Assembly (NCBI RefSeq): GCF_044324785.1
Contig: NZ_CP172127.1
Direction: 5' to 3' (one strand)
Length of the DNA: 64,000 nt
From: Escherichia coli
GTDB taxonomy: Bacteria; Pseudomonadota; Gammaproteobacteria; Enterobacterales; Enterobacteriaceae
Shown here: positions 8,616 to 62,491 of the stretch, piece after piece
Position numbering within the stretch: the stretch's first letter is position 1
Layout: every line of letters starts with the position of its first letter
Made by a program: the position numbers and the translations under genes
Notes under the pieces: model-generated
Databases searched by the model: none
The model's input: only the letters and a program-made list of their open reading frames with translations
Told to the model about the DNA's origin: nothing

Positions 8616-8624
8616 GGAGGAACA

Positions 8625-29677: not shown

Positions 29678-29699
29678 CCTATAACTATTTGGAATCAAA

Positions 29700-30172: not shown

Positions 30173-30185
30173 TAATCAAGCCGGG

Positions 30186-30551: not shown

Positions 30552-30582
30552 GGTATCCTGCGCAAAACTAAGGAGGTTGGTG

Positions 30583-30770: not shown

Positions 30771-30787
30771 CCATCCATGGCATTTAG

Positions 30788-42368: not shown

Positions 42369-43781
42369 TTACCAACCGGAGGATGAGGGAACGTATATTT
42401 CTGTTTCTTCGCGGACCAATGCCGGGCAATGCATACACATCATCAGCGCATCAGCCAGGTTAGGAGATGGAATACCGAGCTTCTGCTTCATTTCGACCTT
42501 AGTCATTAGCTCCAGCTTCCCGTTGTTATTGAATTTGCGCTGAATCTGCGTCAGTTCTGCAAACAGCTTCTCCAGCATCTTCTCGCCTATCGCTTCTTTG
42601 TCGAAACTCAGCATGTCGTCTGGGTCTGCATACTCACCGTGAACAACCGCCCGATATGTCAGATACAGCCTGTCAGCCAGCACGTAATAGAATTGCGCTC
42701 GCTTATTGCGGAATACATCGCCAATAGTGCGAACGTTGTCGCCCTGTACGACTTCATCAGCCCAAGCTCCGGACTGATACGGCGCATCTTCATCGAATGG
42801 CGATTCGCTACCCTTGAACATTGTGGCGGTGATTTTCTTGCCGGAGAACGCTTCCGTTGTCTGTCTGCGCAGCCCGGCACCAACACCATCACCATCCCAC
42901 AGGTAATGGTCAGCGCCGTCTTCAATCGCCAGCGAAGTAGCCCAGTCAGCACCCTCGTTGATGTCCATCAGCAGACCTTCGGCAATGCGCTTAACTACCG
43001 AACCGTGACGCGATGCATAACCTTTAGCATCTGGCCCTGTATCTGATGGGTCATGCGCAGAGACAACCGCGCCCTTCGCTTTCCATCCGAGTTTCTTGTG
43101 CGCATCGGTTGCAGCTTCAAGCCATTCACGTTTGATGATTGCCATATCACTTGCGCTTACCGGCTCACCCAGCCAGATGTGACGATACAGTGTCGGATTT
43201 CTGCGTTTGCACTCTTCCATCTCCAGACGGAGAACTTCAGGAAAGTGCGGGTTGTCGGTGTAGTTCACCGTCAGCAGACAAATATCATCAGGAGGATTTA
43301 CGACGAATCGCTGATAGGTATCGTCGAGGATGTTCTTCGGGTTAAAGCTCACCCATATTTCAGAGAACGGCTTACGGATGGTTGGAATCAGGATATCCCA
43401 TGATTCCTTCGTTACCGCTTCCGCTTCTTCCACCCAGCAGATATCAATGCCTTCGAGCGATTTAATCTTCGTCGGGTTGTTTTTGATGCCGTAGAACATG
43501 AATTCAGCATTCGTTCCGAGATGACGAATCATTGAACGCTGAATTTCAAACTCAGCCGAATACCCTTCACGCTCGATGGTATCTTCAAGCAACCGGATTA
43601 CCGAATCGCTGATACTGTTTTGCAGTTCACGAGCGCAGAGAATACGCACAGGCTGCCGACGCGCCGCTTCAACAAGCAGCCTCGCAATTGCCCATGACTT
43701 ACCGCTACCTCGACCGCCTTTGGCAACTTTGTAGCGATGCGCCTCAATGAACGGTTCAAAGATAGGATTAATCGAGGTCAT
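42369..43781 (-). CDS. Terminase large subunit, 470 aa
   Basis: Walker A motif KGGRGSGKS near the N-terminus; 4-bp overlap with the terminase small-subunit gene. Confidence 0.9.
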   Translation of the reverse strand: MTSINPIFEPFIEAHRYKVAKGGRGSGKSWAIARLLVEAARRQPVRILCARELQNSISDSVIRLLEDTIEREGYSAEFEIQRSMIRHLGTNAEFMFYGIKNNPTKIKSLEGIDICWVEEAEAVTKESWDILIPTIRKPFSEIWVSFNPKNILDDTYQRFVVNPPDDICLLTVNYTDNPHFPEVLRLEMEECKRRNPTLYRHIWLGEPVSASDMAIIKREWLEAATDAHKKLGWKAKGAVVSAHDPSDTGPDAKGYASRHGSVVKRIAEGLLMDINEGADWATSLAIEDGADHYLWDGDGVGAGLRRQTTEAFSGKKITATMFKGSESPFDEDAPYQSGAWADEVVQGDNVRTIGDVFRNKRAQFYYVLADRLYLTYRAVVHGEYADPDDMLSFDKEAIGEKMLEKLFAELTQIQRKFNNNGKLELMTKVEMKQKLGIPSPNLADALMMCMHCPALVREETEIYVPSSSGW

Positions 43782-44218
43782 TTTCCGAATAGAGTGCTCA
43801 TCGGTGATGTTTCAATCTGAATTGCGCCGCCGTCTTTGCCTGTTAGCTCGTGATCAACCTTGTCGCGCCATTTATCCTTCTGTCGGTTCTTAAGCCAGAA
43901 GATGGCGGCGGTTGTATCAGGCGGGTAATACTTCTCAAGCGGAGTTTCGACAATTCTGTTTTCAATAACACGAATATCGATGTCTGGAGCCACAAACCCC
44001 ATAGCGCGTTGATAAAGACGGTCACTAACTTCTGCATCAGCGACGGCCTTACCCTTTTTTATGGACTCCGAAAACTTAGGATAATCAAGCTTCCACTTGT
44101 TAATAGTTGACTCACTGACTTCAAAGAAATCAGCAAGTTCTGCATCGGTGTAGCCCAGCAAGCACAGTTTGCGTGCCTGTTCGGCATACGCCTCTTGATA
44201 CTTTGTTGGGCGCGCCAT
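43778..44218 (-). CDS. Terminase small subunit (Sf6-type), 146 aa
   Basis: N-terminal HTH and the C-terminal tail ELTGKDGGAIQIETSPMSTLFGK, as in the Sf6 small terminase as I recall it. Confidence 0.8.
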   Translation of the reverse strand: MARPTKYQEAYAEQARKLCLLGYTDAELADFFEVSESTINKWKLDYPKFSESIKKGKAVADAEVSDRLYQRAMGFVAPDIDIRVIENRIVETPLEKYYPPDTTAAIFWLKNRQKDKWRDKVDHELTGKDGGAIQIETSPMSTLFGK

Positions 44219-44220
44219 GT

Positions 44221-44463
44221 TTATGCTCCGGTAGTGAACAGGTCTAACGCTTCCTTCGATTTACGCACCGCTTCGATTGTGCGGGTCGTGATATCTGAAT
44301 TAGCGCCGCCTGACTGGAAGTGAATTTTGAATAGCTCAAGCTTCAGCTCGTCAGTGCCGATGAACTGAAATGCTTCCTCTGCGGCTGCGTTCTGGTTCAT
44401 TACCAGTTTGTAAATCTCTAACTGGAATTTCTGTTCTTCAGTCATGGGAATAATCTCTGCCAT
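44221..44463 (-). CDS. Hypothetical phage protein, 80 aa
   Basis: ORF directly upstream of the terminase small-subunit gene. Confidence 0.45.
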   Translation of the reverse strand: MAEIIPMTEEQKFQLEIYKLVMNQNAAAEEAFQFIGTDELKLELFKIHFQSGGANSDITTRTIEAVRKSKEALDLFTTGA

Positions 44464-44566
44464 TGTTGGCTCCGTTTATCCGTTAAAAGGGATATCAGTT
44501 AAGTTATCCCGTGTAGGGTATAAGCCATTATCAAAGCCACTCAGTAAGGAATGGCTTTTGTAATAA

Positions 44567-44938
44567 CTACTGTTCGCTTAGCTTCTGCTTCAGCAAGTAA
44601 CCTTCAAGCATCCAGATTTTGTTTACAGCATTCTGCCGGGCAATCTTCCGACCAATTTCTGCATCAAAATTTTCCGGACTTGCACAGGCACTCTCTCCGG
44701 TGACGGTGAAGCCGTTGCGCAGCACCAGGACGCAGAACGTCAGCAGAGAAAGTGATTCGTGCGGCTGGTAGTTTACCTCTCCGCCAGTATGTTTCGCTTT
44801 TATGGCTTTGCCAAAGGCACCATCCTCTGCTGTGAAATATGCCTCCTGAGCAATAATTCCTTCGATATGGTCTGGCGTAACGCGCGGTGCCGTTTTGCCT
44901 TTCTCAACGATTTCTTTTTCGATTTGCTGGTCGTTCAT
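44567..44938 (-). CDS. Hypothetical phage protein, 123 aa
   Basis: ORF with a plausible start; unknown function. Confidence 0.45.
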   Translation of the reverse strand: MNDQQIEKEIVEKGKTAPRVTPDHIEGIIAQEAYFTAEDGAFGKAIKAKHTGGEVNYQPHESLSLLTFCVLVLRNGFTVTGESACASPENFDAEIGRKIARQNAVNKIWMLEGYLLKQKLSEQ

Positions 44939-45117
44939 AATTATGACCCTGTAGAGTGGTTGCTTGATTAGGATGTATTTCCATCAGTCCGCCACCACAA
45001 AGAATCTTTTTTGCCATAAGGCAGGAGGTTCATCTTTCAGTGGCTGCCAGTGTTATTTTTCCCACTTACTGGCTTGGGTTGTTTCGCTGTACTGCCGTTA
45101 ATTGGTGAGTCCGGGGA

Positions 45118-45603
45118 TTATTTCAGTTCGTTACCAGGCATTTCTTTTAGCTCTTTCAAATGACAACGATTGAGACTAAACCACTCCCCGTGCGACCTAT
45201 AGTTGTAATATTTTTGGTGCAATTTGGTTTCAAGCTCTCTATCGGCCGGAATCTTTGCAATTAGACTTAGCTTCCCACCACTCATGCGAGATATCTCTGA
45301 AATTCGTTTATTAACCCTGCGACTAAACCCTATTTTTGTTAGCCCACTATCTTCAGCATGCAGAACGTACACATATGATTTTTGCGAAGCACTGGGTGCG
45401 ACTTTGTTGTAATTAATCATGTCAAACATGAAGCCTTGCTTTAGCAAAGTTTCAAAAAAGATAGAATTAACACACCCATTCCTTCTCAGCTCTGAACTTA
45501 GCTTGTCAATTTCCTCTATGATGTCGCCAGACCCCTTTCCACTTATAAGAAAATCTTGGTACATGCGACCAATTCTTGAGGTAATTTCAACAAAGTTATT
45601 CAT
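45118..45603 (-). CDS. T5orf172 (GIY-YIG-like) domain protein, 161 aa
   Basis: C-terminal half YVYVLHAEDSGLTKIGFS...RISEISRMSGGKLSLIAKIP...ELETKLHQKYYNYRSHGEWFSL fits the T5orf172 pattern; strongly AT-rich relative to its neighbours. Confidence 0.6.
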   Translation of the reverse strand: MNNFVEITSRIGRMYQDFLISGKGSGDIIEEIDKLSSELRRNGCVNSIFFETLLKQGFMFDMINYNKVAPSASQKSYVYVLHAEDSGLTKIGFSRRVNKRISEISRMSGGKLSLIAKIPADRELETKLHQKYYNYRSHGEWFSLNRCHLKELKEMPGNELK

Positions 45604-45943
45604 AGCGTTTACCTTTTAGAAAGTGAGCCTGTCTCACAGAAAAGCCGCCCGAGAGAGGTCGCCACCTATAACGGCATTTCTCAGGCTCGCTTACTGAAAG
45701 GCTCTCGTTAATATGCGCGTGAGATGCGCTGTGAGATTCAGATATAAAAAAGCCCCGCGAATGCGAGGCTAAATCCTGGTGTTTGTGATGACTGGCTCTT
45801 ATCTCAACGCAGCCCCTTACCGCGCGCCAGATGCTCAATATCAAGCATCAGCAATGAGATGTTTAATCTGGATTCACTCCAGAAGTGATCACCACCCTGT
45901 CTACAGAGCCAGATGTGAAGGATGATGAGTAAAATTATCGCTA

Positions 45944-46381
45944 TCATCGAAGGCATTGCATCCTGATGTACTCCTGCAGGTAGTTAACCTGCGCGGTTAT
46001 CTTGTCGATTCCACTTCGGAGACGGTAATAATTGAGTTCAGCATCTGCTGTAAGTCCTGGGCTTTCTCCATCGCCCATGCCGCCGGCTCCGGTCGTTGAC
46101 TTTGCACAGGTGGCGGCGACTTGCAGGCGCTTACGCCCAGCAGAAACATCAGCACGGAGACTTTCGATAGTCGCGTTAGCATCAGCAAGCTCCTTTGTGT
46201 ATCTGGCGTCAAGTTCTGCTACATCACGTTGACGCTTCTGCATGTCAGCGATGATGGATGCGGCCTTATCGCGCTGCTCTTTGTAGGCGATGGCGTTATC
46301 ACGGTAATGATTAACAGCCCATGACAGGCAGACGATGATGCAGATAACCAGAGCGGAGATAATCGCGGTTAACCGACTCAT
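45944..46381 (-). CDS. i-spanin Rz (from ATG 46381)
   Basis: [39 protein letters not shown]... is near-identical to the lambda Rz N-terminus as I recall it. Confidence 0.85.
45997..46212 (-). CDS. o-spanin Rz1 (lipoprotein embedded in the +1 frame of Rz)
   Basis: Lipobox LLGVSAC followed by a Pro-rich region; lies entirely within Rz in another frame; the true start is probably an internal Met. Confidence 0.7.
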
Positions 46382-46469
46382 GACATCAACACCCCAACGG
46401 CCAGAAACCACGGCCACGCATCGTTGCCATTAAATGCGAGCAACGCTGCCATGAAAAAGCAAATCATGC

Positions 46470-46973
46470 TCATTGCTGCCCCCACAAACAGACTTCACGC
46501 TCAATCTCACGACGAGTCATCAGCCCTTTCCATTGCTTACCTCCAGCGTATGTCCAGCGACGTAGCTGGTCACATGCACCTTTGATATCGCCCTGGTTTA
46601 TTTTGCGAAGAAGCGTCGATGTTCTGAAATTGCCTGCACCCACGTTGTAGACGAACGAGTAAAGAGCGCCGCGCGTTGTTTCCGGTATATCGACTTTGAT
46701 GTACGGGTTAATTTGTCTGGCGACAGTGGCAAGGTCTTTATTCAGGAGGGCTTTGCACTCTGCTTCGGTATACGCTTTACCGAGCATGATGTCTTTTCCG
46801 GTGTGTCCGTGACATACAGTCCATACACCAACAATATCTTTGTATGGTATGTAGCTGACACCTTCCAGGCCATCGTTACCACTTGGTCCAGTGATTAACA
46901 CAGATGCTATAGCAATAGCCCCGCCACTTATCGCCGCTATTACGCTATTTCGTAGTGCCGGTGACATTGCCAT
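46470..46973 (-). CDS. SAR endolysin (phage 21 R-type lysozyme)
   Basis: N-terminal Gly/Ala-rich signal-anchor-release domain ([19 protein letters not shown]) followed by a T4-lysozyme-like catalytic triad region ([23 protein letters not shown]). Confidence 0.85.
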
Positions 46974-47148
46974 TCAATCTGTCCTCGCGCTCTTTGCGCT
47001 TGTAGTACCAGTTGATGCCAAATGTGCCGACAGTACAAAGAATACCAATGATGACAGCCCAGTCATTCAGGGAGAGAATGCCACCCATCGCAGTCAGTCC
47101 TCCGAAACTGTAACTGAACCATTCTCTGATTTTGTCCATACGGTACAT
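46945..47148 (-). CDS. Class II holin (pinholin-like) with dual-start motif
   Basis: 67 aa with two TM helices; N-terminus M-Y-R-M gives two in-frame starts separated by a basic residue; overlaps the endolysin start. Confidence 0.7.
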
Positions 47149-47392
47149 GCTCTACCCCTTCATTGAGGGGATTTGCTCTATTTAATTAGGAATAAGGTCG
47201 ATTACTGATAGAACAAATCCAGGCTACTGTGTTTAGTAATCAGATTTGTTCGTGACCGATATGCACGGGCAAAACGGCATGAGGTTGTTAGCGCAGCCTC
47301 TTGCCACCCGCTTTCACGAAGGTCATGTGTAGAAGGCCGCAGCATAACTATCACTGATGAATTCAGGATAGCCAGTGGCTACGGCTCAGTTA

Positions 47393-47468
47393 TGGTGCTG
47401 GTTAACGGACTTGAACCGCTAGCCATTCGCTTACAAGGCGACCGCTCTACCATTGGAGCTAAACCAGC
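47393..47468 (-). tRNA. Prophage-encoded tRNA (76 nt; anticodon read as UGU, Thr)
   Basis: Hand fold of GCTGGTT...AACCAGCACCA: 7-bp acceptor stem, D-arm GCTC/GAGC, T-arm AGCGG-TTCAAGT-CCGTT, CCA encoded; the anticodon stem has one mismatch. Confidence 0.55.
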
Positions 47469-47473
47469 ATGTT

Positions 47474-47548
47474 TGGCGGGACAGCGTGGACTCGAACCAC
47501 GATAAGAAGGTTAACAGCCTTCCGTAATGACCTTTATACGACTGACCC
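47474..47548 (-). tRNA. Prophage-encoded tRNA-like gene (75 nt; anticodon read as GUU, Asn), possibly degenerate
   Basis: T-arm CGTGG-TTCGAGT-CCACG and anticodon arm GAAGG-CTGTTAA-CCTTC are clean; the acceptor and D stems each have one mismatch; CCA encoded. Confidence 0.45.
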
Positions 47549-47611
47549 GAATAAAAAAAGCCACCGTTGCAACTTAAGAGTCACTAACGGCAGCTTACCT
47601 TCTAATTATTG

Positions 47612-48130
47612 CTAAATGGATAATTGCATGTCAAGGCTTTTAACAGCAACATGCTTAACTTTCTCAACACGTTTACGCATTTTGAAAGCATTTTGCATTG
47701 GCTGGTACAAAACAAATAACGATGCTTTCAGGATGTCGTCAATTTCGTTTCTACAGGTTGCCAGTGAAGGTTTTCTCCATCCCTCGCCACCACGTCCACA
47801 CATCTTGCGTGGCTTTGCAGTCGCGTGATAGTAGGATGCAATTGCTCGCTTAGATGAACCATGAGCGTAGTAGCTGAGGAGGATGCCAAAGGCTTTCTTG
47901 TCAATGCACATGACGGAATCGACGACCTGAGAAATCAACATTCCATCATCATCATTGCACATTGGCCTTGTCATAACTCTTCCCGGCTCTACGCTCTCCA
48001 TGAACTTCGCTATTACGCTGCTCATGCGCTTTTCCAGACGACCTGAATAAACCCATGCGCCCCACAGTTCAAGCCAGCCATTCAGCCACTCATGCTGTTC
48101 TTTGGTGAGGTTTAGTTCTCTTATGCCCAC
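47612..48130 (-). CDS. Late-gene antiterminator Q (933W/phage-21 type)
   Basis: Shares the WGAW...RP-C-DDD...LL-YY pattern with 933W Q as I recall it; positioned between the nin region and the tRNA/lysis genes. Confidence 0.7.
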
Positions 48131-48792
48131 TCGCCTTCTCCCTGTACCTGAATCAATGTGAGGTTTCCGCAGAACACTGAGCCGGTATCGATATACATTT
48201 GGTTGGCAAATTTAAGTGGTTTCACTGCTGGCGTATGACCAAAGATAAACGTGTCCGCGCCTTTAATTTCTTTCACGATCCCGTCTTGTGAGTTGCTGAT
48301 TCGTTCGCGGTTCCAGATTACCTGCTGATGATCAACTGGCTTTCCAAATTCGTATTCGTCACAAGGATAATCGGCGTGGCAGATGACATATTTTTTACCT
48401 TTGCTCACCAGTTCGATGATTAACGGAAGTTCTTCTGCTTTATGGGCAAGAGCTTTAGCCAGAATTTCTTTGTCGTAATCGAGATTAAAGAACCAACTAC
48501 CGCCATTAAGCAGCCAGTGATTGACGTTTCCACGCTCTGATAAGCCATCAATCATCATTTGCTCATGGTTTCCACGTACAGCTCGGAACCAGGGGAATGT
48601 GATTAATTCCAGACATTCGACGTTCTCTGTACCGCGATCGACCAAATCGCCAACCGAGATAAGCAGGTCTTTTTTGGTGTCGAATCCTATCGTCTCCAGT
48701 TTTTTCATCAGGTTCGTGTAGCATCCGTGCAGATCGCCAACTACCCAAATATTTCGGTATTTGCTGCCATCAATTCTTTCGTAATAGCGCAT
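48121..48792 (-). CDS. Ser/Thr protein phosphatase NinI (lambda PPase-like), from ATG 48792
   Basis: [29 protein letters not shown]...GDLVDRG...GNHE metallophosphatase motifs; near-identical to lambda NinI as I recall it. Confidence 0.85.
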
Positions 48793-48976
48793 CTCTTTCA
48801 CTCCATCCGCGATGAACCATGAGAACGTCGTTGACGATGGCGTGCATTTTCCCGTCTTTATCATCAACGTATTTTCTGACCGTACCGCGACTACATTTCA
48901 GTCTGCGTGCTACTTCTGTCTGGTTTCCGTATGCTTCAACGAGCATGTCTGGAATGGTTTTTACTGAGAACGTCAT
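48770..48976 (-). CDS. NinH (68 aa)
   Basis: [37 protein letters not shown] matches lambda NinH. Confidence 0.8.
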
Positions 48977-49584
48977 GCGGCCTCACTTCTGCTATTTCGC
49001 AGGTCTTTGAGTTTCTGTTGGTACTCTGCCTTGATCGCCTTGCACTCTTCGACAGTCCAGCGATGGCGGTTATGGTTTGATTCGATTTCGTCTACTGCTT
49101 CCTGCCCGATCCGGTTAATCAGTTCGACGCGATACGGAACGAGATTTCCGCTTTTATGCTGGTTGCACACCACGCATTGCTTGTGAATATTGCGTTCATC
49201 AAATCGGAGTTGAGGTGCCGCAGCAGTTGTCCGGTAATGCCCGGCATCCCACTGAGCAGACGTGAGCGTTCCGCATGAGATACATGGTAAGTCGCGGTCT
49301 CTTTCTCTGATGAAGGCGTTTACGGCTTGTTGGGCTTGTTTAATCCAGTAACTGCGGGGCTTTAAGGCGAGTTTTCGAATCTTAAGTTTATCTTTCTGTT
49401 TCTGCTCCTCTCGTCGTCGTTTCTTCTCTGCTGCTTTTTCCGCTTTTTCGCGTTCTTTGCTTCGTCATTCGAGTGCTATCTTGGTTCCACACTCTGGAGA
49501 GCACCACCACTGATTAGCGAATGCAGGGTGAAACCATTCCCGGCATTCATCGTTTTTACATCGTCTTCGCGCTGGTTTAGCCAT
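48973..49584 (-). pseudogene. ninG (rap) with an in-frame TGA at codon 40
   Basis: [39 protein letters not shown]-[TGA][21 protein letters not shown]... continues in the same frame to 48973 (203 codons in total); the stop is at 49465-49467 on the minus strand. Confidence 0.75.
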
Positions 49585-49853
49585 TATGGTTCGCTCCAGT
49601 AATTCTCAATTGCAGCAGCCATTCTCTGCATCCACTCTGCCAGCTTTAACGCGGCTTCTCTTTCAGAACCACATTTAGGGAAATCCTTCATTTCCATGCT
49701 GGCCTTATATGTTCTGAATGCCAGGTCTCCGGTAATAACCAGCTCCTGATCAAGCACAGAGCGTTTATTCCGGTGTTGAACGTAATAGACAGATTCAGTC
49801 CGCATTTCTTCTCTGTCTTTTTTGAAGGAAATAAGCTCAGAGAAATCACTCAT
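49584..49853 (-). CDS. Hypothetical nin-region protein, 89 aa
   Basis: ORF whose ATG overlaps the stop of the upstream NinF-like gene. Confidence 0.45.
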
Positions 49854-50022
49854 CGTCTTCTTCCTCGTACATTGAGCTATTCGGATCGCTCATCAGTTCT
49901 GCGCAGCAATCGGCGCACACGTGAACTTCCAGCACATGCAGCTTCTGACCGCAGTTAGCGCACGTTAAAGCCCGCTCGACGCTTTCTTTCTGGTATTGAA
50001 GGGATTGGGATGGGCTAAGCAT
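49846..50022 (-). CDS. NinF-like small zinc-ribbon protein (58 aa)
   Basis: Hand translation [58 protein letters not shown]; below the 60-aa cutoff of the ORF track. Confidence 0.6.
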   Translation of the reverse strand: MLSPSQSLQYQKESVERALTCANCGQKLHVLEVHVCADCCAELMSDPNSSMYEEEDDE

Positions 50023-50438
50023 TATTGGATTCTCTGCATCCTGAGAAAGACAATCATGGCTGCGCGGAGAGGGTTGTCATCAAGAGTAATATGCTCACCA
50101 AAGCTATCAGCCTCCCACCATGACACTGCTTTCATGCCAGGGTTTGCTCGCTTGTATGCACATACGCTGATCATGTTTTCCATGATAATCGGCCATGCGT
50201 CTGCTGGGTTTGCGCATGGGTTAAAGGAACCGCGCTCAACTTCTACTTCAACTGCGTCTCCGTTTACAATGTCTCCCTCAAATGAGACAAACACCATATC
50301 GCCATTCTCACCTTCTTTGTAATCCGGTGATCCGTTATGAATGGCTTCGAATACCTCCACGTTAATTTCAAAATCACTTAACTGTGAATAATCCATTGTC
50401 ATTTCCTCGCACGATGTCTTAGCCACCGGATATCCCAC
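50022..50438 (-). CDS. Hypothetical nin-region protein, 138 aa
   Basis: ORF only; acidic. Confidence 0.45.
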
Positions 50439-50541
50439 AGGTGAGCCGTGTAGTTGAAGGTTTTTACGTCAGATTCTTTTGGGATTGGCTTGCGTTTATT
50501 TCTGGAGCGTTTCGTTGGAAGGTATTTGCAGTTTTCGCAGA

Positions 50542-50733
50542 TTATGTCGGTGATACTTCGTCGCTGTCTCGCCATACGTCCTCCTTTTCCTGCGGTAGTG
50601 GTAAAACTCCTGTTGGTGTTCTTTCACACCGGAGACACCATCGATTCCAGTAAGGTTGCCCGGGTCGAAAGCGATCGCCTTCCTTTCGCTCTCCACATCG
50701 ATAACAGTGCTTCATGCGATCACCATTTTGCAT
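50542..50733 (-). CDS. Small zinc-ribbon protein (about 57-63 aa)
   Basis: [32 protein letters not shown]; frame choice between two overlapping ORFs is uncertain. Confidence 0.35.
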
Positions 50734-51302
50734 GGTTTAATCGCCATGCCGGTAGCCAGTTCAAAATCGGAGTCGCACTGATTGCCCCACATATCCCACC
50801 CGGTCACTTTGTCGCGGCTAAATAACTCACAGCGCGGCACGTCGCCAAGCAACTTAGCTAACATGTCTCTTACGATCGGTGGTTTTGCACTGTGCTCCAT
50901 TCTCGGTGCGGTAAAGTGCTGGCATATGGAAGCGTCCATTCTCTCAGGCAACCGCCCTCGAACAGCAAACAAGCAATCCTCGCTATTTGCCCTGGTCATA
51001 TGCCCCATTCCGATCGCACTGTTGCCTTTGTGCTTATTGGTTTTGTGCCAGGTAAAGCCTTTCATAGTCATCAACCTGAATCCCCACGCCTCAACTACCT
51101 TTAGCGCTTCGGCTGGCTGTGTCGGCACCCACCACATCGCTAACAAGCAAGATTCTGGATCCGCTAAATCCCATACTGGCAGTCGGCAAATGTCCTGAAC
51201 ATTCATAACATCGTATTTATGTCCAGCACCGCGATTGCCATCGTTGGCTTTGTCGCGATATTGCCAAGGCGGATCTGCGTAAATAAGTCGGTATTTGTTC
51301 AT
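50712..51302 (-). CDS. Phage DNA N6-adenine methyltransferase (MT-A70-like, DPPW motif)
   Basis: [15 protein letters not shown]... catalytic DPPW near the N-terminus; 196 aa. Confidence 0.8.
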
Positions 51303-51739
51303 GCAGCTTTATCTCCCCATCTCGCTTTCCACTCCAGAGCCAGTCGCGCTTCGTCTGACCACTTAACGCCACGTTCTGTACCGAATGCCTGTATAAGCTC
51401 TAATAGCTCCGCAAATTCGCCTACACGCATCCTGCTGGTTGACTGGCCTATTACCACAAAGCCATTCCCGGCAAGGTTAGGAACAACATCCTGCTGCTTT
51501 AATGCTGCGGTAAACACACACTTCCAGCTTTCTGCATCCAGCCAGCGACCATGCCATTCAACCTGACGAGAGACGTCACCAAGGCAAGCCCAAAGCTTTC
51601 GATTCTGGTCTAAGCTGCGGTTGCGTTCCTGGATGGTCACTACGATTGGTTTGGTTGGGTCTGGAAGAATTTGCTGTATCGCGTGAATAGCGTTTTGCTG
51701 ATGAATGGGGCTTCTTAGTTCAAACGTTAGTTTCCTCAT
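51299..51739 (-). CDS. NinB recombination protein
   Basis: 146 aa matching lambda NinB as I recall it (IVVTIQERNRSLDQNRKLWACLGDVS...). Confidence 0.8.
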   Translation of the reverse strand: MRKLTFELRSPIHQQNAIHAIQQILPDPTKPIVVTIQERNRSLDQNRKLWACLGDVSRQVEWHGRWLDAESWKCVFTAALKQQDVVPNLAGNGFVVIGQSTSRMRVGEFAELLELIQAFGTERGVKWSDEARLALEWKARWGDKAA

Positions 51740-51974
51740 TGCTCACCTTCTGCACGCATGGATTAATTAACGCCAAAATAGCTTCTGGTTTCTCAATAAC
51801 ATCGAACCGCTCACCACTTGCCATTCTTACAATCGTAATCCCGGCCTCAAATATGGTTTCGATGTTGTCAGAGTTAACGTACAAGGGCTCATATGCACTT
51901 CTGGTGCTTTCTATCACGCCTGTGCTTGGTGGCTGATAGATGCTGCATTGCATGGTTAATTTTATAAATGGCAT
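51720..51974 (-). CDS. Hypothetical phage protein, 84 aa
   Basis: ORF only. Confidence 0.4.
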   Translation of the reverse strand: MPFIKLTMQCSIYQPPSTGVIESTRSAYEPLYVNSDNIETIFEAGITIVRMASGERFDVIEKPEAILALINPCVQKVSNEETNV

Positions 51975-51978
51975 ATAC

Positions 51979-52218
51979 TCACTCCTTCACTTTGACTCCA
52001 GCAGCGCGGATGGCGCTCTGCACCTCGCTTACATACAGATATGGGGTTCGCCCACTATGCATGGTAAAGCTTTCAGGAAGCTCAATCTCGATAGCTGCTC
52101 GCGATGCCTGCCATAAAGCCCACCACTCATTTAAGGAGTGACGAATATCCATGCTTGAAAATGCGAAGTACCTATCACCATTTCTTGCCTCGGTTATCAT
52201 CTCGAATGGTAATCTCAA
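51979..52218 (-). CDS. Hypothetical phage protein, 79 aa
   Basis: ORF only. Confidence 0.4.
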   Translation of the reverse strand: MRLPFEMITEARNGDRYFAFSSMDIRHSLNEWWALWQASRAAIEIELPESFTMHSGRTPYLYVSEVQSAIRAAGVKVKE

Positions 52219-52274
52219 TTTTTTGGCAACGTATTCCTAAAACTGCTTTCTTGATTCGCCCATATCAATCCCCG

Positions 52275-52475
52275 TTATGACAGGTTAATTTTCACCCAAC
52301 CCTTCCCACGCACATTTGCAACAAGCCCTTTCTTTCTCAGGTATTGCATACGGCGATCGATGGTTTCGATATACATTCCATTGCTCCGCCATTTAAGCCA
52401 GATATCAAAAACAGGTGTTGGTCTTTCACTCAGCATTGAAAGAATGTTTTGATCTAATTTTTCGTACTTGCTCAC
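52275..52475 (-). CDS. Hypothetical small DNA-binding-like protein, 66 aa
   Basis: Basic C-terminus (RRMQYLRKKGLVANVRGKGW) suggests a winged helix. Confidence 0.4.
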   Translation of the reverse strand: MSKYEKLDQNILSMLSERPTPVFDIWLKWRSNGMYIETIDRRMQYLRKKGLVANVRGKGWVKINLS

Positions 52476-52798
52476 AAATACCCTCTCTCACTTAATCGCG
52501 CCCACGCTTCGTTAAACTCTTCTCGAGTTGCGCCGGATTTTCTTTCTTCGAACATCATGCATTCGCTGATGTCTCCCCATGACTTTGGTCGCTTTTCAGC
52601 GAACAGATCATCCCATTCGAATACCCAGCGGCCTGATTTTCGGTAGTGGTAAATGGTCAGCCATGTTGTGCTGTTCGCTGGATACCCATAGAGAACTTCG
52701 ACTTTTTGATCACGGTCTTTATGCTTTTTCAGCAGGATAAAGCCAGCAACTAGCGAAGCTCCGGCAAGAATGATGATTGGAATTTGCCAGTCAGCCAC
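52472..52798 (-). CDS. Hypothetical membrane-anchored protein, 108 aa
   Basis: N-terminal TM helix IPIIILAGASLVAGFILL. Confidence 0.4.
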   Translation of the reverse strand: MADWQIPIIILAGASLVAGFILLKKHKDRDQKVEVLYGYPANSTTWLTIYHYRKSGRWVFEWDDLFAEKRPKSWGDISECMMFEERKSGATREEFNEAWARLSERGYL

Positions 52799-52870
52799 AC
52801 TTCCCTCTCCCCCAAATAAAAAGGCCTGCGATTACCAGCAGGCCTGTTATTAGGTCAGTTATGTAGATGG

Positions 52871-54247
52871 TCATACGTCAGCCCCTTGTGCATATCGTCT
52901 GCCACGCGCAGCAGGTGCATTTGATGCTGTGCAAATCTGTCTGGCTTCATCCTGGTCACATGCAACAAAGTGTCCGTTACAGAACCGCTGGTAAACCGTA
53001 CCAAGCGAGCCAAAACGGTTTTTCGTCACAATGATTTCAGCAAATGGCGCGGCGCTACTGTTCTCGTCATATACCGCTTCCCGATAGAGCATGATGATTG
53101 AGTCTGCGTCCTGCTCAATGCTTCCTGAATCACGCAAATCTGCGTTTGTCGGGCGTTTGTTTGGTCGCTTCTCAACATCGCGCGAAAGCTGACTCAGGGA
53201 GATAACAGGCGTTTTCAGGTCTTTCGCCATCGCCTTCAGGCTTCCGGAGATGTGAGCAATTGCGAGGTCGTTGCGGTCTGCTTTCGGCTTCTCAATCAGG
53301 CCAAGATAATCCGCCATGATGAGTGACAGGTTTGGATTTTCCTGTTTGTGCCGCTCTGCGATTGAGCGAATTTCTTCTACCGATAACCGCGAGGCATCGA
53401 CTACCCATACATCCAAATCTGCAAGCTGACTCATGCCGTTAGCAACACGTGCCCAGCCTTCGTCATCCATCGATGCAGGATTTCGTAGCACGCTAACCGA
53501 CATCCTCCCGGCGTTGGCAATGCTTCGCTCTGCAATCTGCAATGCGCTCATTTCCATCGAGAAAATCAACACTCCGCGCCGGACGTCAGAACCAGGAATA
53601 ACACGACTTGCAACGCCTTCGGCAATCTTCAGCGCCAGTTCGGTTTTCCCCATACCAGGACGAGCAGCGATTATCACCAGGTCTTCCGCGTTCATCCCTC
53701 CGGTGATGGCATCAAGTTCTTCGATTCCGGTCTTCAGGGTATCTGACTCTTCTCCGTTCCTCAGACGCCTGTCAAGCGTGTCAGTGTAGTCAGTGATGAT
53801 TTCACCTAACCGTACAGGTTTAACCTCGTCACGGGGCTTTCTGATGGCTGAGAGACGCTTTACAAGCTCATCCATCGCTTGACTCGATGCGTCGATGGTT
53901 CCGCTCTGAATTGGTTCACGCATTTCATCCATGATTTCCAGCACCAGACGGCGGTGATAGTTATCCGCGACCATTCCGGCATATCCCTTCAGGTTTGCGG
54001 CACTCGGGCAGTTTTTGCTGGTCATCAGGATTGACGTGAAATGCTCCTCTCCGCACGCCTCGGCAACCATCAGCGCATCGATTAGGTTTCTGTTTCTCGC
54101 CTGCTTGCGGATAACCTCGAAGGCTTTCCGGTAGAGCGGAATTGAAAACGCTTCCGGCTCCAGCGTTGCCAGAACGTCGCTGGCGGTTGGTGTTAATCCA
54201 CCAATCAGCAGGCCACCGATAACGCTCGCTTCGATATCCTGTCTCAT
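52871..54247 (-). CDS. Replicative DNA helicase (DnaB-like; P22 gene 12 analogue)
   Basis: Walker A ARPGMGKT plus DnaB-type N- and C-terminal domains; 458 aa. Confidence 0.9.
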
Positions 54248-55065
54248 GCAATCCCCCTGTCTGCAAACTTCCCTTCCCGTACTCCAGTTAACGAATCTTC
54301 CCTCAGCAGGTAATCAAAATCAGCTGTCCAGCCCGTGTCGTTGTCTCCGAAGTAAAACGGCTTGGCCTGATGCACAAACGCCCTGACATACGCTCTGAAA
54401 CCGTCCACGTTTGGCGTTTTCAGTTGCGGGATGATTTTCTTCAGGCGGCGTTTGCGTTTCTCGTTGACCGCAACAGCGTGTGGCAGTCTGTCACCGACTT
54501 CGGTGTTGTAGGCGTTCAGGAAGGATTCGTAGTCGATTCGTTCTGCCTTGCGACGTTCAGGTTTAACCTGCCCATCGCCACCCCCGTTAGGGGGTAAGGG
54601 GGTATTTGTATTTATTGTCTTTTGTATATTGTCTTTTGTGTTTAGCTGACTTGGCTTATACCCATTAGCCGACTTGGCTAATGTTTTATTAGCTGTTTTA
54701 GCTAATGTTAAGCTGTCCTGGCTAATCCACTGAGAAACAACCTTGTTCACTCCGATTTTCACGCCATCAGCAATGAGGAATTTACGCTCGATAAGCTGGC
54801 GCTTGGCAGCGCAAACATGAGTGTGATGAATACCTGTCATGGCTGCTATCTGCGTGTTTGTGAGTCGATCCATCGGCTTATTGAATCCGTATGTCTTGCG
54901 CATGATAGCGAGCATCACCTTCAACTGCCGGACGGTTAAATCAGCCATCAGCAGACTGTCGGTAATCTCGTTAGCAACGCGCATGAAACCATCTTCGGTA
55001 TCTGCCACGCGATGCTCCACGACCTCAAGTTGAGGCCTGTAATCAGCTAACTTAACGACGCCCAT
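54244..55065 (-). CDS. Replication initiation protein (lambda O / P22 gp18-like)
   Basis: 273 aa; N-terminal HTH; the gene contains an iteron-rich AT segment (see repeat feature). Confidence 0.75.
54580..54730. repeat. Putative phage origin of replication (iterons inside the O-like gene)
   Basis: CCCCCGTTAGGGGG palindrome followed by direct repeats TTGTCTTTTGT (x2), GACTTGGCT (x2) and TAGCTAATGTT (x2) in an AT-rich stretch. Confidence 0.5.
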
Positions 55066-55247
55066 GTTTCACTCCTGCTTTGGCTAGTCTGTAAACACCA
55101 ACAAGGCGCTCTGCGAACGCCCTGTTATTTGCTGCGGCTACCACTAATCCCTCAGGTGAATCAGGGTGTCGAATCTCTTCTTTTTCCTGGTATTTCTTAC
55201 GACGTTTTGTCATAATGACTCCTGTGGATTGATCCAGTCTTTCTACA

Positions 55248-55529
55248 TCAGGCCTCGAAGAATTCGCCGTTCTTCGGGGCTTTTTCTTTTGTCAGGTAAT
55301 TGGCAAGCCGCTTAGTCAGCTCAGCCATTTCATCGTCTTCGATTCCGTATTCCAGAACAGCCAGCATCATGCTTACCTGCGAGAAGAAACCATTCTTCCA
55401 TCGGCTTACCTGATATTCAGGAACCCCCATTGCTCGAGCGAATGTCTTCTGCCCCATCAGTGCCAGTTTGTTCAGCAAGGCTGACTCGATGCGAGCCGCT
55501 TTCTTGCTTTTAGTTGCAATAGTACCCAT
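55248..55529 (-). CDS. CII-like transcriptional activator
   Basis: ARIESALLNKLALMGQKTFARAMGVPEYQVSRWK...MLAVLEYGIEDDEMAEL parallels lambda CII. Confidence 0.8.
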   Translation of the reverse strand: MGTIATKSKKAARIESALLNKLALMGQKTFARAMGVPEYQVSRWKNGFFSQVSMMLAVLEYGIEDDEMAELTKRLANYLTKEKAPKNGEFFEA

Positions 55530-55605
55530 AGATAATTTCCTTAATGATTAGATAGAGTTGGCTTCGCAAAGAAACGCAAAACCATAGAGATTTGTTTCTG
55601 GTAAT

Positions 55606-55637
55606 GCCCTTTTTCAGGGCGGGGATGTGTAAGAGCG
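55606..55637 (-). promoter_or_regulatory. nutR (boxA + boxB)
   Basis: Minus-strand boxA CGCTCTTAC and boxB GCCCTGAAAAAGGGC, between cro and cII. Confidence 0.8.
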
Positions 55638-55645
55638 TTAATAAC

Positions 55646-55876
55646 TTAAGCGGCCATTAATTCAGGCCAGATGCTTTCCCAATCAACCGGATGAAGGTCT
55701 TTGCGAGTCACTTCACCATTGCTGAACTTCTCAATCAGAACACAAAGTGCTGCGCCCAATTCATGATTACGGCTAAGTGCTTTCCTCAAATAGCCGATAG
55801 AAGTTCCGCACTTGGTGGCAAATTCTCTCTGCTCTTCCAGTGAAAGGGAGTTCAGATACAAGCGGAGTTCTTCCAT
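55646..55876 (-). CDS. Cro-like repressor (HTH)
   Basis: 76 aa, divergent from cI across the operator region; HTH segment REFATKCGTSIGYLRKALS. Confidence 0.7.
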   Translation of the reverse strand: MEELRLYLNSLSLEEQREFATKCGTSIGYLRKALSRNHELGAALCVLIEKFSNGEVTRKDLHPVDWESIWPELMAA

Positions 55877-55910
55877 TTGCTATCTCCTTCCCGTTGTTGA
55901 ATAAGATGAG

Positions 55911-55965
55911 TTTACCTGTAGGTAAAAAGCAAATCAATACCCATAGGTTATTTACCGGCAGGTAA
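55911..55965. promoter_or_regulatory. Right operator region (OR) with PR/PRM
   Basis: Palindromic sites TTTACCTGTAGGTAAA (55911-55926) and TTTACCGGCAGGTAA (55951-55965), consensus TTACC-N4-GGTAA. Confidence 0.7.
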
Positions 55966-55984
55966 TCAAAGATAGAATTAAATC

Positions 55985-56671
55985 ATGGATAAATACGAAC
56001 AAAGACGACTAAGGCTGATAGAGATAAGAGACCGATTCTGTAATGGAAAGGCCTCAGAGTTGGCTCGTCGAATAGAAAGGGAACCATCATACGTTTCCAG
56101 AATGCTGTATCCGGAAGGAAAAAGCGGAAAAAAACGCATTGCTGACGATATGATGGAACTAATTGAAAAATCTTTTAATCTCCCACGCGGATGGATGGAC
56201 ATGCTTGCAGATGGTAAAGCTGGAGCTACAGACCATCTTGAGTTTGCGGGTAACGTTCGTGCGGGTTTTGTTCCGGTAATTGGTGAAGCCGTTTTGGGAG
56301 TTGATGGCTCAGTGGATATGATTGAATTCAGATCCGGTTGGTTAAGCATCTACAGCGGCGATAAAGATGCTTACGGTCTGAAGGTTAAGGGTGACAGCAT
56401 GTGGCCAAGGATTCAGTCAGGAGAATATGTTGTTATTGAACCAAATACGCCAGTACATCCAGGTGATGAAGTCTTTGTAAGGACCAAAGACGGTCACAAC
56501 ATGATAAAGATCATGAACAAAACAAGAGACGGTGATTATCAGTTTAGTAGCATAAACAGTGATCACCGCCCAATCACTCTTCCTGTTGAAGAAGTTGATA
56601 AAATGCATTTTGTTTCAGCTATTGTGAAACACACCAGGTACGTAGACCAGGACGATCTGCCAAAAGTTTGA
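55985..56671 (+). CDS. CI-type prophage repressor (HTH + LexA-like S24 peptidase domain)
   Basis: N-terminal HTH and C-terminal autocleavage domain with GDSMWP (Ser nucleophile); 228 aa. Confidence 0.85.
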   Translation: MDKYEQRRLRLIEIRDRFCNGKASELARRIEREPSYVSRMLYPEGKSGKKRIADDMMELIEKSFNLPRGWMDMLADGKAGATDHLEFAGNVRAGFVPVIGEAVLGVDGSVDMIEFRSGWLSIYSGDKDAYGLKVKGDSMWPRIQSGEYVVIEPNTPVHPGDEVFVRTKDGHNMIKIMNKTRDGDYQFSSINSDHRPITLPVEEVDKMHFVSAIVKHTRYVDQDDLPKV

Positions 56672-56685
56672 GGATAAAGCAGCAA

Positions 56686-56982
56686 GTGTTTATACCCGGC
56701 ATAGTAGTCGCTGTTGTAATCATCTGCTTCATATGGGCAAAGTTATCTCCTGTAAGCTCTAAGCATACAGCTGAACTCATGAAGAAGAAGCATCTTATAC
56801 ATGAGGCAGAATCGATAATTAAAAAGTTCAAAGGCATGTCATACGACGACATGTCATCAGAGCAGATTGCTATGTATAAATGCGCCATTGAGCGTCTTGA
56901 CTACTTAAACGGACTCAAACCCAAACACACCCCAGTAGAATCAAAATTGCCGCAATGGCCAAGCAATCCAAATAGCTTCTGA
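56686..56982 (+). CDS. Small single-pass membrane protein downstream of cI (rex-locus position), about 98 aa
   Basis: GTG at 56686 with GAGG upstream (or TTG 56668); TM helix VFIPGIVVAVVIICFIWA then a soluble domain; followed by an intrinsic terminator. Confidence 0.5.
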   Translation: MFIPGIVVAVVIICFIWAKLSPVSSKHTAELMKKKHLIHEAESIIKKFKGMSYDDMSSEQIAMYKCAIERLDYLNGLKPKHTPVESKLPQWPSNPNSF

Positions 56983-56993
56983 CATCTCCTTTC

Positions 56994-57016
56994 AGCCCGC
57001 AAAGCGGGCTTTTTTA
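56994..57016 (+). terminator. Intrinsic terminator ending the cI operon
   Basis: AGCCCGC-AAA-GCGGGCT hairpin followed by TTTTTT. Confidence 0.8.
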
Positions 57017-57035
57017 TATCAATCCAAAAAATTAA

Positions 57036-57116
57036 TTACCTGAAAATTCAAGCAGGTAAACTCTTACATCAATTTTATTTACCTGCAGGTATAGACAACT
57101 GTTTTACCTGTAGGTA
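57036..57116. promoter_or_regulatory. Left operator region (OL) with PL
   Basis: Sites TTACCTG-N10-CAGGTAA (57036-57059), TTACCTGCAGGTA (57079-57091) and TTACCTGTAGGTA (57104-57116), the same consensus as OR. Confidence 0.7.
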
Positions 57117-57160
57117 TATTTTAGGCCATCAGCAGGACGCACTGACCACCATGAAGGTGA

Positions 57161-57191
57161 TGCTCTTAAAAATTAAGCCCTGAAGAAGGGC
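57161..57191 (+). promoter_or_regulatory. nutL (boxA + boxB)
   Basis: TGCTCTTAAAAATTAAGCCCTGAAGAAGGGC; boxB hairpin GCCCTGAAGAAGGGC as in lambda nutL. Confidence 0.85.
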
Positions 57192-57348
57192 AGCATTCAA
57201 AGCAGAAGGCTTTGGTGTGTGTGATACGAAACGAAGCATTGGCCGGAAGTGCGAATCCGGATTAGCTGCCAATGTGCCATTGCGTGGTGTTTTCGTTCAG
57301 GACTACGACTCCCACACACAACCAAAGCTAACTGACAGGAGAATCCAG

Positions 57349-58246
<898 letters not shown>

Positions 58247-58369
58247 TTAAAAGACAGGCATACTAATAAACACTGCACTGTGTATTCATTCCAACGAGTG
58301 AATACACGGAGCAATGTCGCTCGTAACTAAACAGGAGCCGACTTGTTCTGATTATTGGAAATCTTCTTT

Positions 58370-58396
58370 GCCCTCCAATGTGAGGGCAGTTTTTTT
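58370..58396 (+). terminator. Intrinsic terminator (tL-like) within the early-left operon
   Basis: GCCCTC-CAATGT-GAGGGC hairpin followed by AGTTTTTTT. Confidence 0.7.
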
Positions 58397-58409
58397 GACG
58401 GAGTAAACG

Positions 58410-58658
58410 ATGATAAAAACTGATTACCCTGCAGAGCTTAAACAAAAAGTAATAACAGCAATTAAATGCTCTTTTATCTCATGTCGTACAGATGAAGAAC
58501 GATATGTCGTTGAGTGTACAATTGTCGAGTTTCTCACAGCGATGGAATTTACCGCTGCAGAATCAATAGATGTATTAAAGCAATCAGACGGAAATGATAT
58601 TGAAACGGATGATGTTATTGACCGACTAATAAAATCATTCGAAGAAGAAATAGAGTAG
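58410..58658 (+). CDS. Hypothetical acidic early protein, 82 aa
   Basis: RBS GGAG upstream of ATG; unknown function. Confidence 0.45.
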   Translation: MIKTDYPAELKQKVITAIKCSFISCRTDEERYVVECTIVEFLTAMEFTAAESIDVLKQSDGNDIETDDVIDRLIKSFEEEIE

Positions 58659-58741
58659 CCGCCTGAGCGCGGCTTTACCGCATACCAATAACGCTTCACT
58701 TGAGGCGTTTTCGTTATGCAATCAAACAGAAGGAGCATCCT

Positions 58742-58912
58742 ATGCAACAGTTCGCTATTGCAGGGGCGGCATCGGTTCGCCCTTTCAACCCGATTTTATC
58801 GGTGCAGCATTCACGAAAAAATATTTTAACCGGAGCAGACTTTAAACAACCAAGAATGAAAAGTTTGCTCGAAAAGCTTTGGGATATTTTGAAACAACAA
58901 GGCCGTCCATGA
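58742..58912 (+). CDS. CIII-like protein (56 aa from ATG 58742)
   Basis: RBS AGGAG; MQQFAIAGA... resembles the lambda CIII N-terminus (MQYAIAGW...). Confidence 0.55.
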   Translation: MQQFAIAGAASVRPFNPILSVQHSRKNILTGADFKQPRMKSLLEKLWDILKQQGRP

Positions 58913-59166
58913 GTTTTACAGATAACTGGTCAGACGAAGAATTCATTCGTCAGATGAAAGAATTAATCGGTAACGAAGGAGATATTCATGTCACTTGCAA
59001 CCACAGTGAAGGAGAGCAAGTTACAGAGACGCATGCACACGCAGAAAGCTCTCTGGTATCGCCATAATGGCGACCGCGAAGGAATGCGGGTATGCCTTAA
59101 TTTGTCCCGAGTCGAAGTATTAAATCAGCGTTATTTCCTTGGGCCTTGTCCATTCTGAGGTGAATT

Positions 59167-59874
59167 ATGGATTTGAACAAATTCGATGAGCCATTCAGCC
59201 CTGAAGATATCGAATGGCGAATACAGCAAAGCGGTAAAACACGCGATGGCAAGGTGTGGGCTATGGTGCTGGCTTATGTCACGAACCGGGCAATCATGAA
59301 ACGCCTGGACGATGTTTGCGGCAAAGCAGGATGGCGCAATGAATACCGCGATATTCCCAACAACGGCGGCGTTGAATGCGGCATATCAATAAAGATTGAT
59401 TCCGAATGGGTAACCAAATGGGATGCTGCTGAAAACACGCAGGTAGAAGCCGTCAAAGGTGGTCGTTCCGGTGCAATGAAGCGCGCTGCCGTTCAGTGGG
59501 GAATCGGTCGGTATCTGTATAACCTTGAGGAAGGTTTCGCACAAACATCTCTCGATAAAAAGCAGGGGTGGCACAGGGCAAAACTGAAGGATGGAACAGG
59601 ATTTTACTGGATCCCTCCATCGCTTCCGGGATGGGCAATCCCAGCATCAGATAACAAACCATCACCAGAAAATACCAACCAGAAATCTCCATCGGTTGAC
59701 TGCGAACAAATCCTGAAAGACTTCAGCGATTATGCATCGAAAGAAACTGATAAGAAAAAACTCATCGAGCGTTATCAGCGTGACTGGCAATTAATGGCTG
59801 GAAACGAGGAGGCGCAGGCTAAATGCGTTCAGGTAATGAACATCAGAGTTAACGAGCTAAAACAGGCGGCATAA
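59167..59874 (+). CDS. ssDNA-annealing recombinase with Erf-type C-terminal domain
   Basis: C-terminal ...DYASKETDKKKLIERYQRDWQLMAGNEEAQAKCVQVMNIRVNELKQAA parallels the P22 Erf C-terminus; the N-terminal domain differs. Confidence 0.7.
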   Translation: MDLNKFDEPFSPEDIEWRIQQSGKTRDGKVWAMVLAYVTNRAIMKRLDDVCGKAGWRNEYRDIPNNGGVECGISIKIDSEWVTKWDAAENTQVEAVKGGRSGAMKRAAVQWGIGRYLYNLEEGFAQTSLDKKQGWHRAKLKDGTGFYWIPPSLPGWAIPASDNKPSPENTNQKSPSVDCEQILKDFSDYASKETDKKKLIERYQRDWQLMAGNEEAQAKCVQVMNIRVNELKQAA

Positions 59875-60390
59875 ATGGCAAGCAGAGGCGTAAATAAGGT
59901 GATCATTATTGGTCGCCTTGGGCATGATCCAGAAATCAGATATTCACCATCAGGAACGGCATTTGCAAACCTTACAGTTGCTACGTCAGAACAATGGCGT
60001 GATAAGCAAACTGGAGAGCAAAAGGAGCAGACGGAGTGGCACCGCGTGGTAATGAGCGGAAAACTGGCAGAAATTGCCAGCGAATATCTGCGAAAAGGCT
60101 CTGAGGTTTATCTTGAAGGAAAATTGCGGACAAGAAAATGGCAGGATCAAAGCGGACAGGATCGGTTCACTACCGAAGTCATCGTGGGCGTTGGTGGAAC
60201 CATGCAAATGCTTGGTGGCAAGCAAGGAGGCAATGAACAGTCTTCACCTCAGCGAAATGACGGTCAGCAACAAAGACAGCAACCTCAGCAGCAAGGGAAT
60301 CACAGCGAACCACCTATGGATTTTGACGACGATATACCCTTTGCACCAGTAACTCTCCCCTTCCCTCGTCACGCTATTCACGCAATTTAA
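59875..60390 (+). CDS. ssb: Single-stranded DNA-binding protein (SSB)
   Basis: OB-fold N-terminus ([34 protein letters not shown]...), Gly/Gln-rich linker and acidic tail DFDDDIPF. Confidence 0.9.
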
Positions 60391-60403
60391 TCAGGAGAAA
60401 ATC

Positions 60404-60700
60404 ATGCCAGCGCCTCAGTATGGTGCGGATGACCCGCGCCGCTGTTCCAGCAATTCCGTATCGGAGGTGCTGGATAAATTCAGAAAAAACTACGATCGGA
60501 TAATGTCGCTACCGCAGGAAACGAAAGAGGAAAAGGAATTTCGCCACTGTATATGGCTTGCAGAGAAAGAAGAACGCGATCGAATTTACCAGACATCAAT
60601 CCGACCATTCCGCAAAGCCACATATACCCACTTCCCTGAATATATCGACCCGCGCCTGCGTAATTACCGCTCACGCTATGGCGCTATCAGTAATGACTGA
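60404..60700 (+). CDS. Hypothetical early protein, 98 aa
   Basis: ORF only. Confidence 0.4.
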
Positions 60701-61046
60701 GGAATTTACCATGAGAGGACTTGCATACAATCCCGGCATTCTTCCGGCAGAAATGATTATTCGCCAACGCGTAAAGCCAATGCCATCGAGAGAGGAATTA
60801 CTTAAGAGAAATAGTTTCGGTTCTGTTAATGACAACAAATATCTGAATGCGATGTGGCGCAAAGGAGGCAAGCAGTGAACAAGATTGACTATCAGGCACT
60901 GCGTGAGATAGCAAAGCACCAGAGACTTACAGAATAATCAGCGAGCTACGCAATGACTAACGCCTCACACTCGATGAGGCTTGTTCATTGCTCAATGATA
61001 TCCAGACCTACCGCAATAATACCAATCCAATAAATGGAGATTCCAG

Positions 61047-62431: not shown

Positions 62432-62491
62432 CTTATTGATTTAAATGGTGCCGATAATAGGAGTCGAACCTACGACCTTCGCATTACGAAT
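62428..62491. repeat. Prophage attachment-site repeat (attR): 64 bp overlapping the thrW 3' end
   Basis: Identical to 22652-22715. Confidence 0.85.

Follow-up and report, generated by a model that had tools for sequence, protein, structure and literature searches.

An opal stop codon in ninG (rap) of a P22-like Escherichia coli prophage is very probably a recent, lineage-private mutation

The ninG (rap) gene of a P22-like prophage was interrupted by TGA at codon 40 in the window, the whole 64,000-nucleotide stretch of Escherichia coli DNA analyzed here (Table 1). The stop is very probably real, very recent, and private to one lineage, having arisen from CGA (Arg40) in a recently acquired and otherwise intact prophage. 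Initiated at the normal start, translation stops after 39 residues, and all invariant residues of the C-terminal nuclease lie downstream of the stop. The gene is an ordinary young pseudogene of a kind that is already known, a plain loss-of-function allele that is perhaps slightly leaky in its TGA-C context.

Translation bore out the initial annotation of a NinG frame that continues in phase past the TGA to its normal end, with the 204 minus-strand codons forming a single frame. Alignment of the DNA with lambda ninG (NC_001416) and the two closest E. coli alleles revealed C to T at gene position 118 and no indels, in agreement with the single CGA-to-TGA change that had been suspected. The alignment to homologues that had been proposed as a check placed CGA at codon 40 in lambda and in every other allele examined and TGA in the window. 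The arginine that the initial annotation gave for lambda was correct; it is numbered Arg41 because the annotated lambda start lies one ATG earlier (ATGATGGCT versus ATAATGGCT in the window). T118 was the sole base of the window's ninG that was unseen in any other allele, and no second lesion was found in the C-terminal 163 codons.

Table 1. Coordinates of the interrupted ninG gene, its prophage, and other features of the window
Feature	Position	Strand	Remarks
P22-like (HK620/Sf6-type) prophage at thrW, next to proA	22652..62491		64-bp att repeats
ninG (rap) reading frame, now pseudogene	48973..49584	-	Translation: 39 codons, TGA, 163 codons, stop
Premature opal stop, TGA then C	49465..49467	-	From CGA (Arg40; lambda Arg41), C to T at window position 49467
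Leftover N-terminal ORF, 39 residues	49468..49584	-	Cys cluster C9/C14/C28/C31; from the ORF list
C-terminal 163 codons, now untranslated	48973..49464	-	Invariant core C101-x2-C104, H116, C137-x2-C140-N141
ninH	48770..48976	-	ATG overlaps normal ninG stop (ATGA); own GAGG Shine-Dalgarno; intact
Lambda-type N antiterminator (Pfam N36)	57349..57672	+	
IS903	27710..28766		1,057 bp
Hexapeptide-repeat acetyltransferase	23045..23716	+	
Tailspike	23736..26105	-	789 residues
tRNA-Thr(TGT) and tRNA-Asn(GTT)	47393..47548	-	
Strong promoter-like site	47634..47605		11/12 matches
C-terminal integrase remnant	22290..22655 and 22451..22591		
AbiEi/AbiEii pair	13680..15390	-	
hsdM	18745..20382	+	
TAA at hsdM codon 5	18757..18759	+	G to T at 18757

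The repaired (Arg40) protein matched the Pfam family PF05766 (NinG) over residues 1 to 197 (E = 1.1e-91; 306.4 bits against a cutoff of 25.4) and covered profile positions 1 to 192 of 193, an end-to-end family match. The window's ninG shared 98.5% DNA identity with lambda ninG, and the repaired 203-residue protein was an exact copy of a widespread protein, for which the assembly collection has 1,879 blocks. Across 21 NinG homologues (61 to 96% identity), C9, C14, and C28 were invariant before the stop, with C or H at position 31, and C101, C104, H116, C137, C140, and N141 were invariant after it; the two half-frames in the window retain all family-invariant residues. Residue 40 itself was variable (R/P/A/S/K/L/D). 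With its frame interrupted at codon 40, the gene belongs to the family by descent, as a pseudogene. The N-terminal Cys cluster is a putative zinc-ribbon-like motif, and the C-terminal core appears by motif to be of the HNH type. In an AlphaFold model (pLDDT 86.5), residue 40 lay within a long helix (residues 30 to 73) that separates a small N-terminal beta-hairpin (residues 7 to 18) from a beta-beta-alpha unit (residues 112 to 142), and the top Foldseek matches were mostly HNH nucleases. One Logan protein (P0001), the representative of a 5,887-member NinG cluster, reads ALEPTKQRTRKAEK, unlike other NinG proteins; this looks like a compensated double frameshift across residues 40 to 47, the variable linker that holds the window's stop.

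The initial annotation had offered a recent nonsense mutation or a sequencing error, to be decided by whether reads carried CGA. The mutation is supported, and the error is effectively excluded by a read-based assembly. The only contig in the collection that encodes the prophage tailspike protein came from the Logan read-based assembly of run SRR31073010; this contig was 100% identical to window positions 22686 to 27738, including the first 29 nt of IS903, and because of this exact match SRR31073010 is regarded as the source strain or a near-clone. A further contig of the same assembly (contig_106, 15.6 kb, containing the nin region and recorded in two samples) matched window positions 55792 to 46839 at 8,954 of 8,954 bases, TGA included, and no gene was called in its ninG slot. 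T, not C, was therefore present in the reads. An error of sequencing, assembly, or polishing, with a true C and an intact ninG, would account for a T that was private to the lineage among E. coli genomes, phage records, GTDB representatives, and JGI metagenomes and that was a lone substitution with no second lesion in its support. Such an error is nevertheless highly improbable, given the recurrence of the T in the SRR31073010 assembly, the location of the site outside homopolymers and Dam, Dcm, and EcoKI motifs, and the lack in window genes of the frameshifts typical of error-prone assemblies. An artefact of Dam, Dcm, or EcoKI methylation was ruled out by the same sequence context. A residual doubt is that the window assembly may itself have been made from the SRR31073010 reads, which would make the comparison one of independent assembly and not of independent sequencing; the contig was recorded in two samples, and a consensus-level substitution error at a nonrepetitive site in both is very unlikely.

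The T allele was sought with a 41-mer centered on the substitution, which matches only T carriers under megablast because a 28-base exact word is needed. No matches were found in 5,426 complete E. coli genomes or in 50,697 phage records, while the control 41-mer with C matched 1,379 places in 993 genomes of the complete E. coli set. An exact 23-mer with T likewise had no matches in GTDB species representatives or in JGI metagenomes. Look-ups of the helicase, the MT-A70 methylase, and the repaired NinG returned widespread alleles only, and no exact one-step DNA ancestor was present among the ten repaired-NinG loci listed. The ninG alleles fetched by exact protein identity differed only synonymously, a circular result that was not used as evidence of selection. 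One match to the 39-residue product was rejected, as the gene was cut by a contig end and had no stop codon. A 66-residue C-terminal fragment was called as a gene at two other loci with a broken ninG, L021 (Logan SRR16329052) and L020 (an ENA metagenome). Codon 40 is still CGA in both; L021 has a 1-bp deletion in an A5 run at about codon 10, and L020 has a rearranged 5' end. As these lesions differ, ninG has been knocked out repeatedly in nature, with the TGA at codon 40 being unique to the window's lineage.

The nearest nonclonal allele, in Logan ERR13187251, is an intact ninG within the same nin gene order and departs from the window's gene at just two bases, position 118 and a private change of its own at position 397. 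Three further assemblies, all with intact ninG alleles, matched the window at 100% identity between ninG position 153 and the lysozyme gene and also from 57034 to 51375. Every base from 57034 to 46839 (10.2 kb) except the T at 49467 was present in nonclonal relatives, which argues that the mutation is very recent, and the 163 downstream codons remain open because there has been no time for further decay. The ninG stop is a clean, datable example of how prophage decay begins, with a single base altered and 10 kb otherwise free of private changes.

Perfect 64-bp att repeats, at 22652 to 22715 and 62428 to 62491 and 39,776 bp apart, mark the ends of the 39.8-kb prophage. Its integrity was assessed by tblastn of the ORFs of HK620, phage 611R6, and two E. 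coli prophages against the window. All prophage genes with close relatives were full-length except ninG, the only one tested with an internal stop; the full-length genes included those for terminase, portal, scaffold, coat, gp4, gp10, gp26, gp14, O, helicase, NinH, the phosphatase, and Q. Genes for a lambda-type N, cI, Cro, cII, integrase, a Rad52-type recombinase, SSB, Abc2, and NinB were also present, of which N, the recombinase, SSB, Abc2, and NinB were intact, along with genes for lysozyme and Rz. The prophage still appears capable of excision and growth. The gene order NinB, MT-A70 methylase, NinE, NinX, NinF, an 89-residue ORF, ninG, NinH, Ser/Thr phosphatase, and Q identifies the neighborhood, from its sequence, as the nin region of a lambdoid early-right operon, and the same nin order, with ninG in the position expected for the family, was found in lambda and in strain A11. 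The NinH protein was 100% identical to WP_000144614 of strain A11. RusA was absent from the nin region, and the ninG lesion would thus leave the prophage without a resolvase of its own.

Several other features of the element were recorded. The N antiterminator, nearly identical to lambda N, sits amid a P22-like virion and int module, so the element is highly mosaic. The IS903 copy, 99.6% identical to that of phage HK022, is flanked by a 9-bp target duplication (GTGCTGAGC) and lies in the immI region, 51 bp beyond mnt; the identical insertion was present in SRR31073010, and it is another recent event. At the prophage end, the acetyltransferase gene lies beside that of the tailspike, a nearly unique protein with a P22 head-binding domain and a pectate-lyase-like domain, and is probably a conversion gene for O-antigen modification, matched to the tailspike receptor. 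Two tRNA genes between Q and the lysis genes were also found in strains A11 and SW070919, and the promoter-like site fits the late promoter pR'. Just outside attR lies an integrase remnant, a 141-nt part of which is 77% identical to the 3' end of the resident int. Relatives with an empty site carry this remnant too; it is the scar of an earlier element at thrW.

From the sequence, the prophage would no longer make the Rap branched-DNA and Holliday-junction endonuclease, and its nin region appears to offer no other resolvase. Lytic growth would then depend on host RuvABC and RecG, and plaque formation should stay unaffected; in lambda, rap encodes a junction resolvase, and its deletion leaves plaque size unchanged (PMC3945230). 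Recombination should drop strongly for RecA-dependent exchange and mildly for exchange via the prophage's own Rad52-type recombinase, as the lambda rap deletion lowers RecA-pathway exchange 300- to 500-fold and Red-pathway exchange 3- to 6-fold (PMC3945230). If induced or used, this phage would be a natural rap-null, with far less RecA-pathway exchange expected with other prophages and plasmids. A 2024 review of Holliday junctions leaves Rap unmentioned. The nin genes are not essential for plaques, and blocks in this region can be polar on Q (PMC10695390). The ninH gene now lies downstream of 492 nt of untranslated RNA, which contains a modest C-over-G tract (gene positions ~199 to 330); within ninG, the coding strand has no intrinsic terminator-like site. 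The lambda-type N antiterminator and the GAGG ribosome site of ninH should both limit any Rho-dependent polarity affecting ninH, the phosphatase gene, and Q. Most simply, the mutation would reflect neutral decay, the gene being dispensable and, in the lysogen, silent.

Some Rap function could in principle persist by read-through or by a restart. Trace amounts of full-length Trp40 protein may come from read-through of the TGA-C stop. A C after the stop was reportedly the weakest context in Poole et al. 1995. TGA is the leakiest stop in E. coli, being read mostly as Trp (PMC11126739). The variability of position 40 in the family and its place in a predicted long helix suggest that Trp may be tolerated there. 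A useful amount of full-length Rap(W40) is nonetheless unlikely, as read-through does not usually exceed a few percent and varies with strain and context, the highest read-through is attributed to the K-12 prfB allele (PMC11126739) and this host is not K-12, and the stop is conserved in no relative, so that nothing points to its maintenance. The open frame of 163 codons past the TGA would be compatible with programmed recoding at a selenocysteine or regulated read-through site, but this feature is explained by the recency of a mutation with no other private change nearby, and the RNA 3' of the TGA is A/G-rich, with a 91-nt region that folded at -8.3 kcal/mol (z = -0.87 against shuffles) and contained no SECIS-like hairpin. 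The UGA is also not conserved, all other alleles having CGA and the T being unmatched in the four collections searched. The selenocysteine reading was dropped on the fold result and the unconserved stop, and recoding of any kind is vanishingly improbable.

The initial annotation had also suggested looking for a product re-initiated downstream, which proved unlikely, and a functional C-terminal nuclease from such a restart is very improbable. ATT is present in frame at codons 69 and 81, ahead of the catalytic core, but neither codon has an upstream Shine-Dalgarno sequence, and the first in-frame ATG, GTG, or TTG codons are 138 and 139, within the invariant C137-V-V-C140-N141 motif. A product started there would have 66 residues and be without C101, C104, and H116. 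The N-terminal Cys cluster, moreover, is family-invariant, and a protein without it is unlikely to be normal. The evidence on read-through, recoding, and restart is consistent with a plain loss-of-function allele.

Host genes tested in the same way, as a gauge of assembly quality, were all intact except hsdM of a type I restriction-modification system, in which codon 5 is GAA in other alleles (E5*). The window was identical to two relatives from 5653 to 22715 (17,063 nt) but for this base, and from 62428 to 64000 as well. The closest host relatives showed 0 to 1 differences in 18.6 kb, with an empty thrW site in some, and the hsdM stop was the only private substitution in these 18.6 kb of flanking host DNA. 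A truncated 490-residue HsdM, from the next in-frame start, was annotated on no more than three contigs; SRR31073010 supplied one of these, which matched the window at 100% identity. A 41-mer with the hsdM T gave no matches in a search that had no positive control, and hsdM was resolved instead by the lineage-specific look-ups. Directly upstream of hsdRMS lies an AbiEi/AbiEii type IV toxin-antitoxin (abortive-infection) pair, and together they form a small defence island beside thrW.

Loss of HsdM in a type I system abolishes restriction and modification alike, and the hsdM stop therefore predicts a restriction-deficient, unmethylated (modification-deficient) host, which is of practical interest in transforming or typing the strain. 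Because the closest relatives have an empty thrW site, hsdM loss and prophage gain fall on the same branch; this branch is very short and also carries the IS903 insertion and the ninG stop. Over the 28.8 kb with near-identical nonclonal comparators, both of the two private substitutions were nonsense, against 3.8% of possible substitutions in the ninG and hsdM genes that create stops. These observations favor knockouts that were selected or deliberately made over neutral accidents, but that reading is unlikely: the ninG stop was chosen for being a stop, which leaves hsdM as the only unbiased draw (P about 0.04), and there are two events only. Rap loss has no known benefit, ninG is repressed in the lysogen, and the two mutations differ in type (C to T and G to T), with no typical editing signature for both. 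A joint account, in which the hsdM knockout opened the cell to an unmodified P22-like phage and the ninG knockout was then favored in the lysogen, is decidedly improbable. Under it, harm might come, for example, from leaky Rap nuclease or from exchange that Rap promotes with resident lambdoid prophages, and the weak TGA-C stop would leave a mere trickle of Trp40 protein. If true, it would be a natural case in which the loss of restriction let a prophage in and selection then disarmed a recombination nuclease of that phage. The companion stop in hsdM is a coherent lead and not a finding, one that questions neutral decay as the origin of the ninG stop.

For the very probable reading, a recent nonsense mutation in a real pseudogene, the annotation should mark ninG as a pseudogene with an internal stop and should neither split it into two small genes nor silently repair it.

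The closest known system is lambda NinG/Rap, a branched-DNA and Holliday-junction endonuclease from which the repaired window protein differs at three residues. Structure-specific cleavage of Holliday junctions and D-loops by lambda Rap is described in Sharples et al. 2004, as cited in PMC4118853. The window's gene occupies the same nin slot as lambda ninG, after ninF and before ninH, the phosphatase gene, and Q, but it is broken at codon 40, lacks the first ATG of lambda, and sits beside a P22-like rather than a lambda-like virion module. In HK620, 611R6, DLP12, and many other prophages, the slot between ninF and ninH is occupied by RusA (with YbcO), which has the same role as Rap in junction resolution (PMC4118853) and is structurally unrelated to NinG. 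Among phage zinc-ribbon HNH endonucleases, GVE2 HNH and Gme HNH are described as having a [CxxC]2 zinc site with His/Asn and an N-terminal CxxxxC...CxxC ribbon (PMC3592412); by motif, they and NinG have in common the [CxxC]2 site, the His/Asn residues, and the extra N-terminal ribbon.
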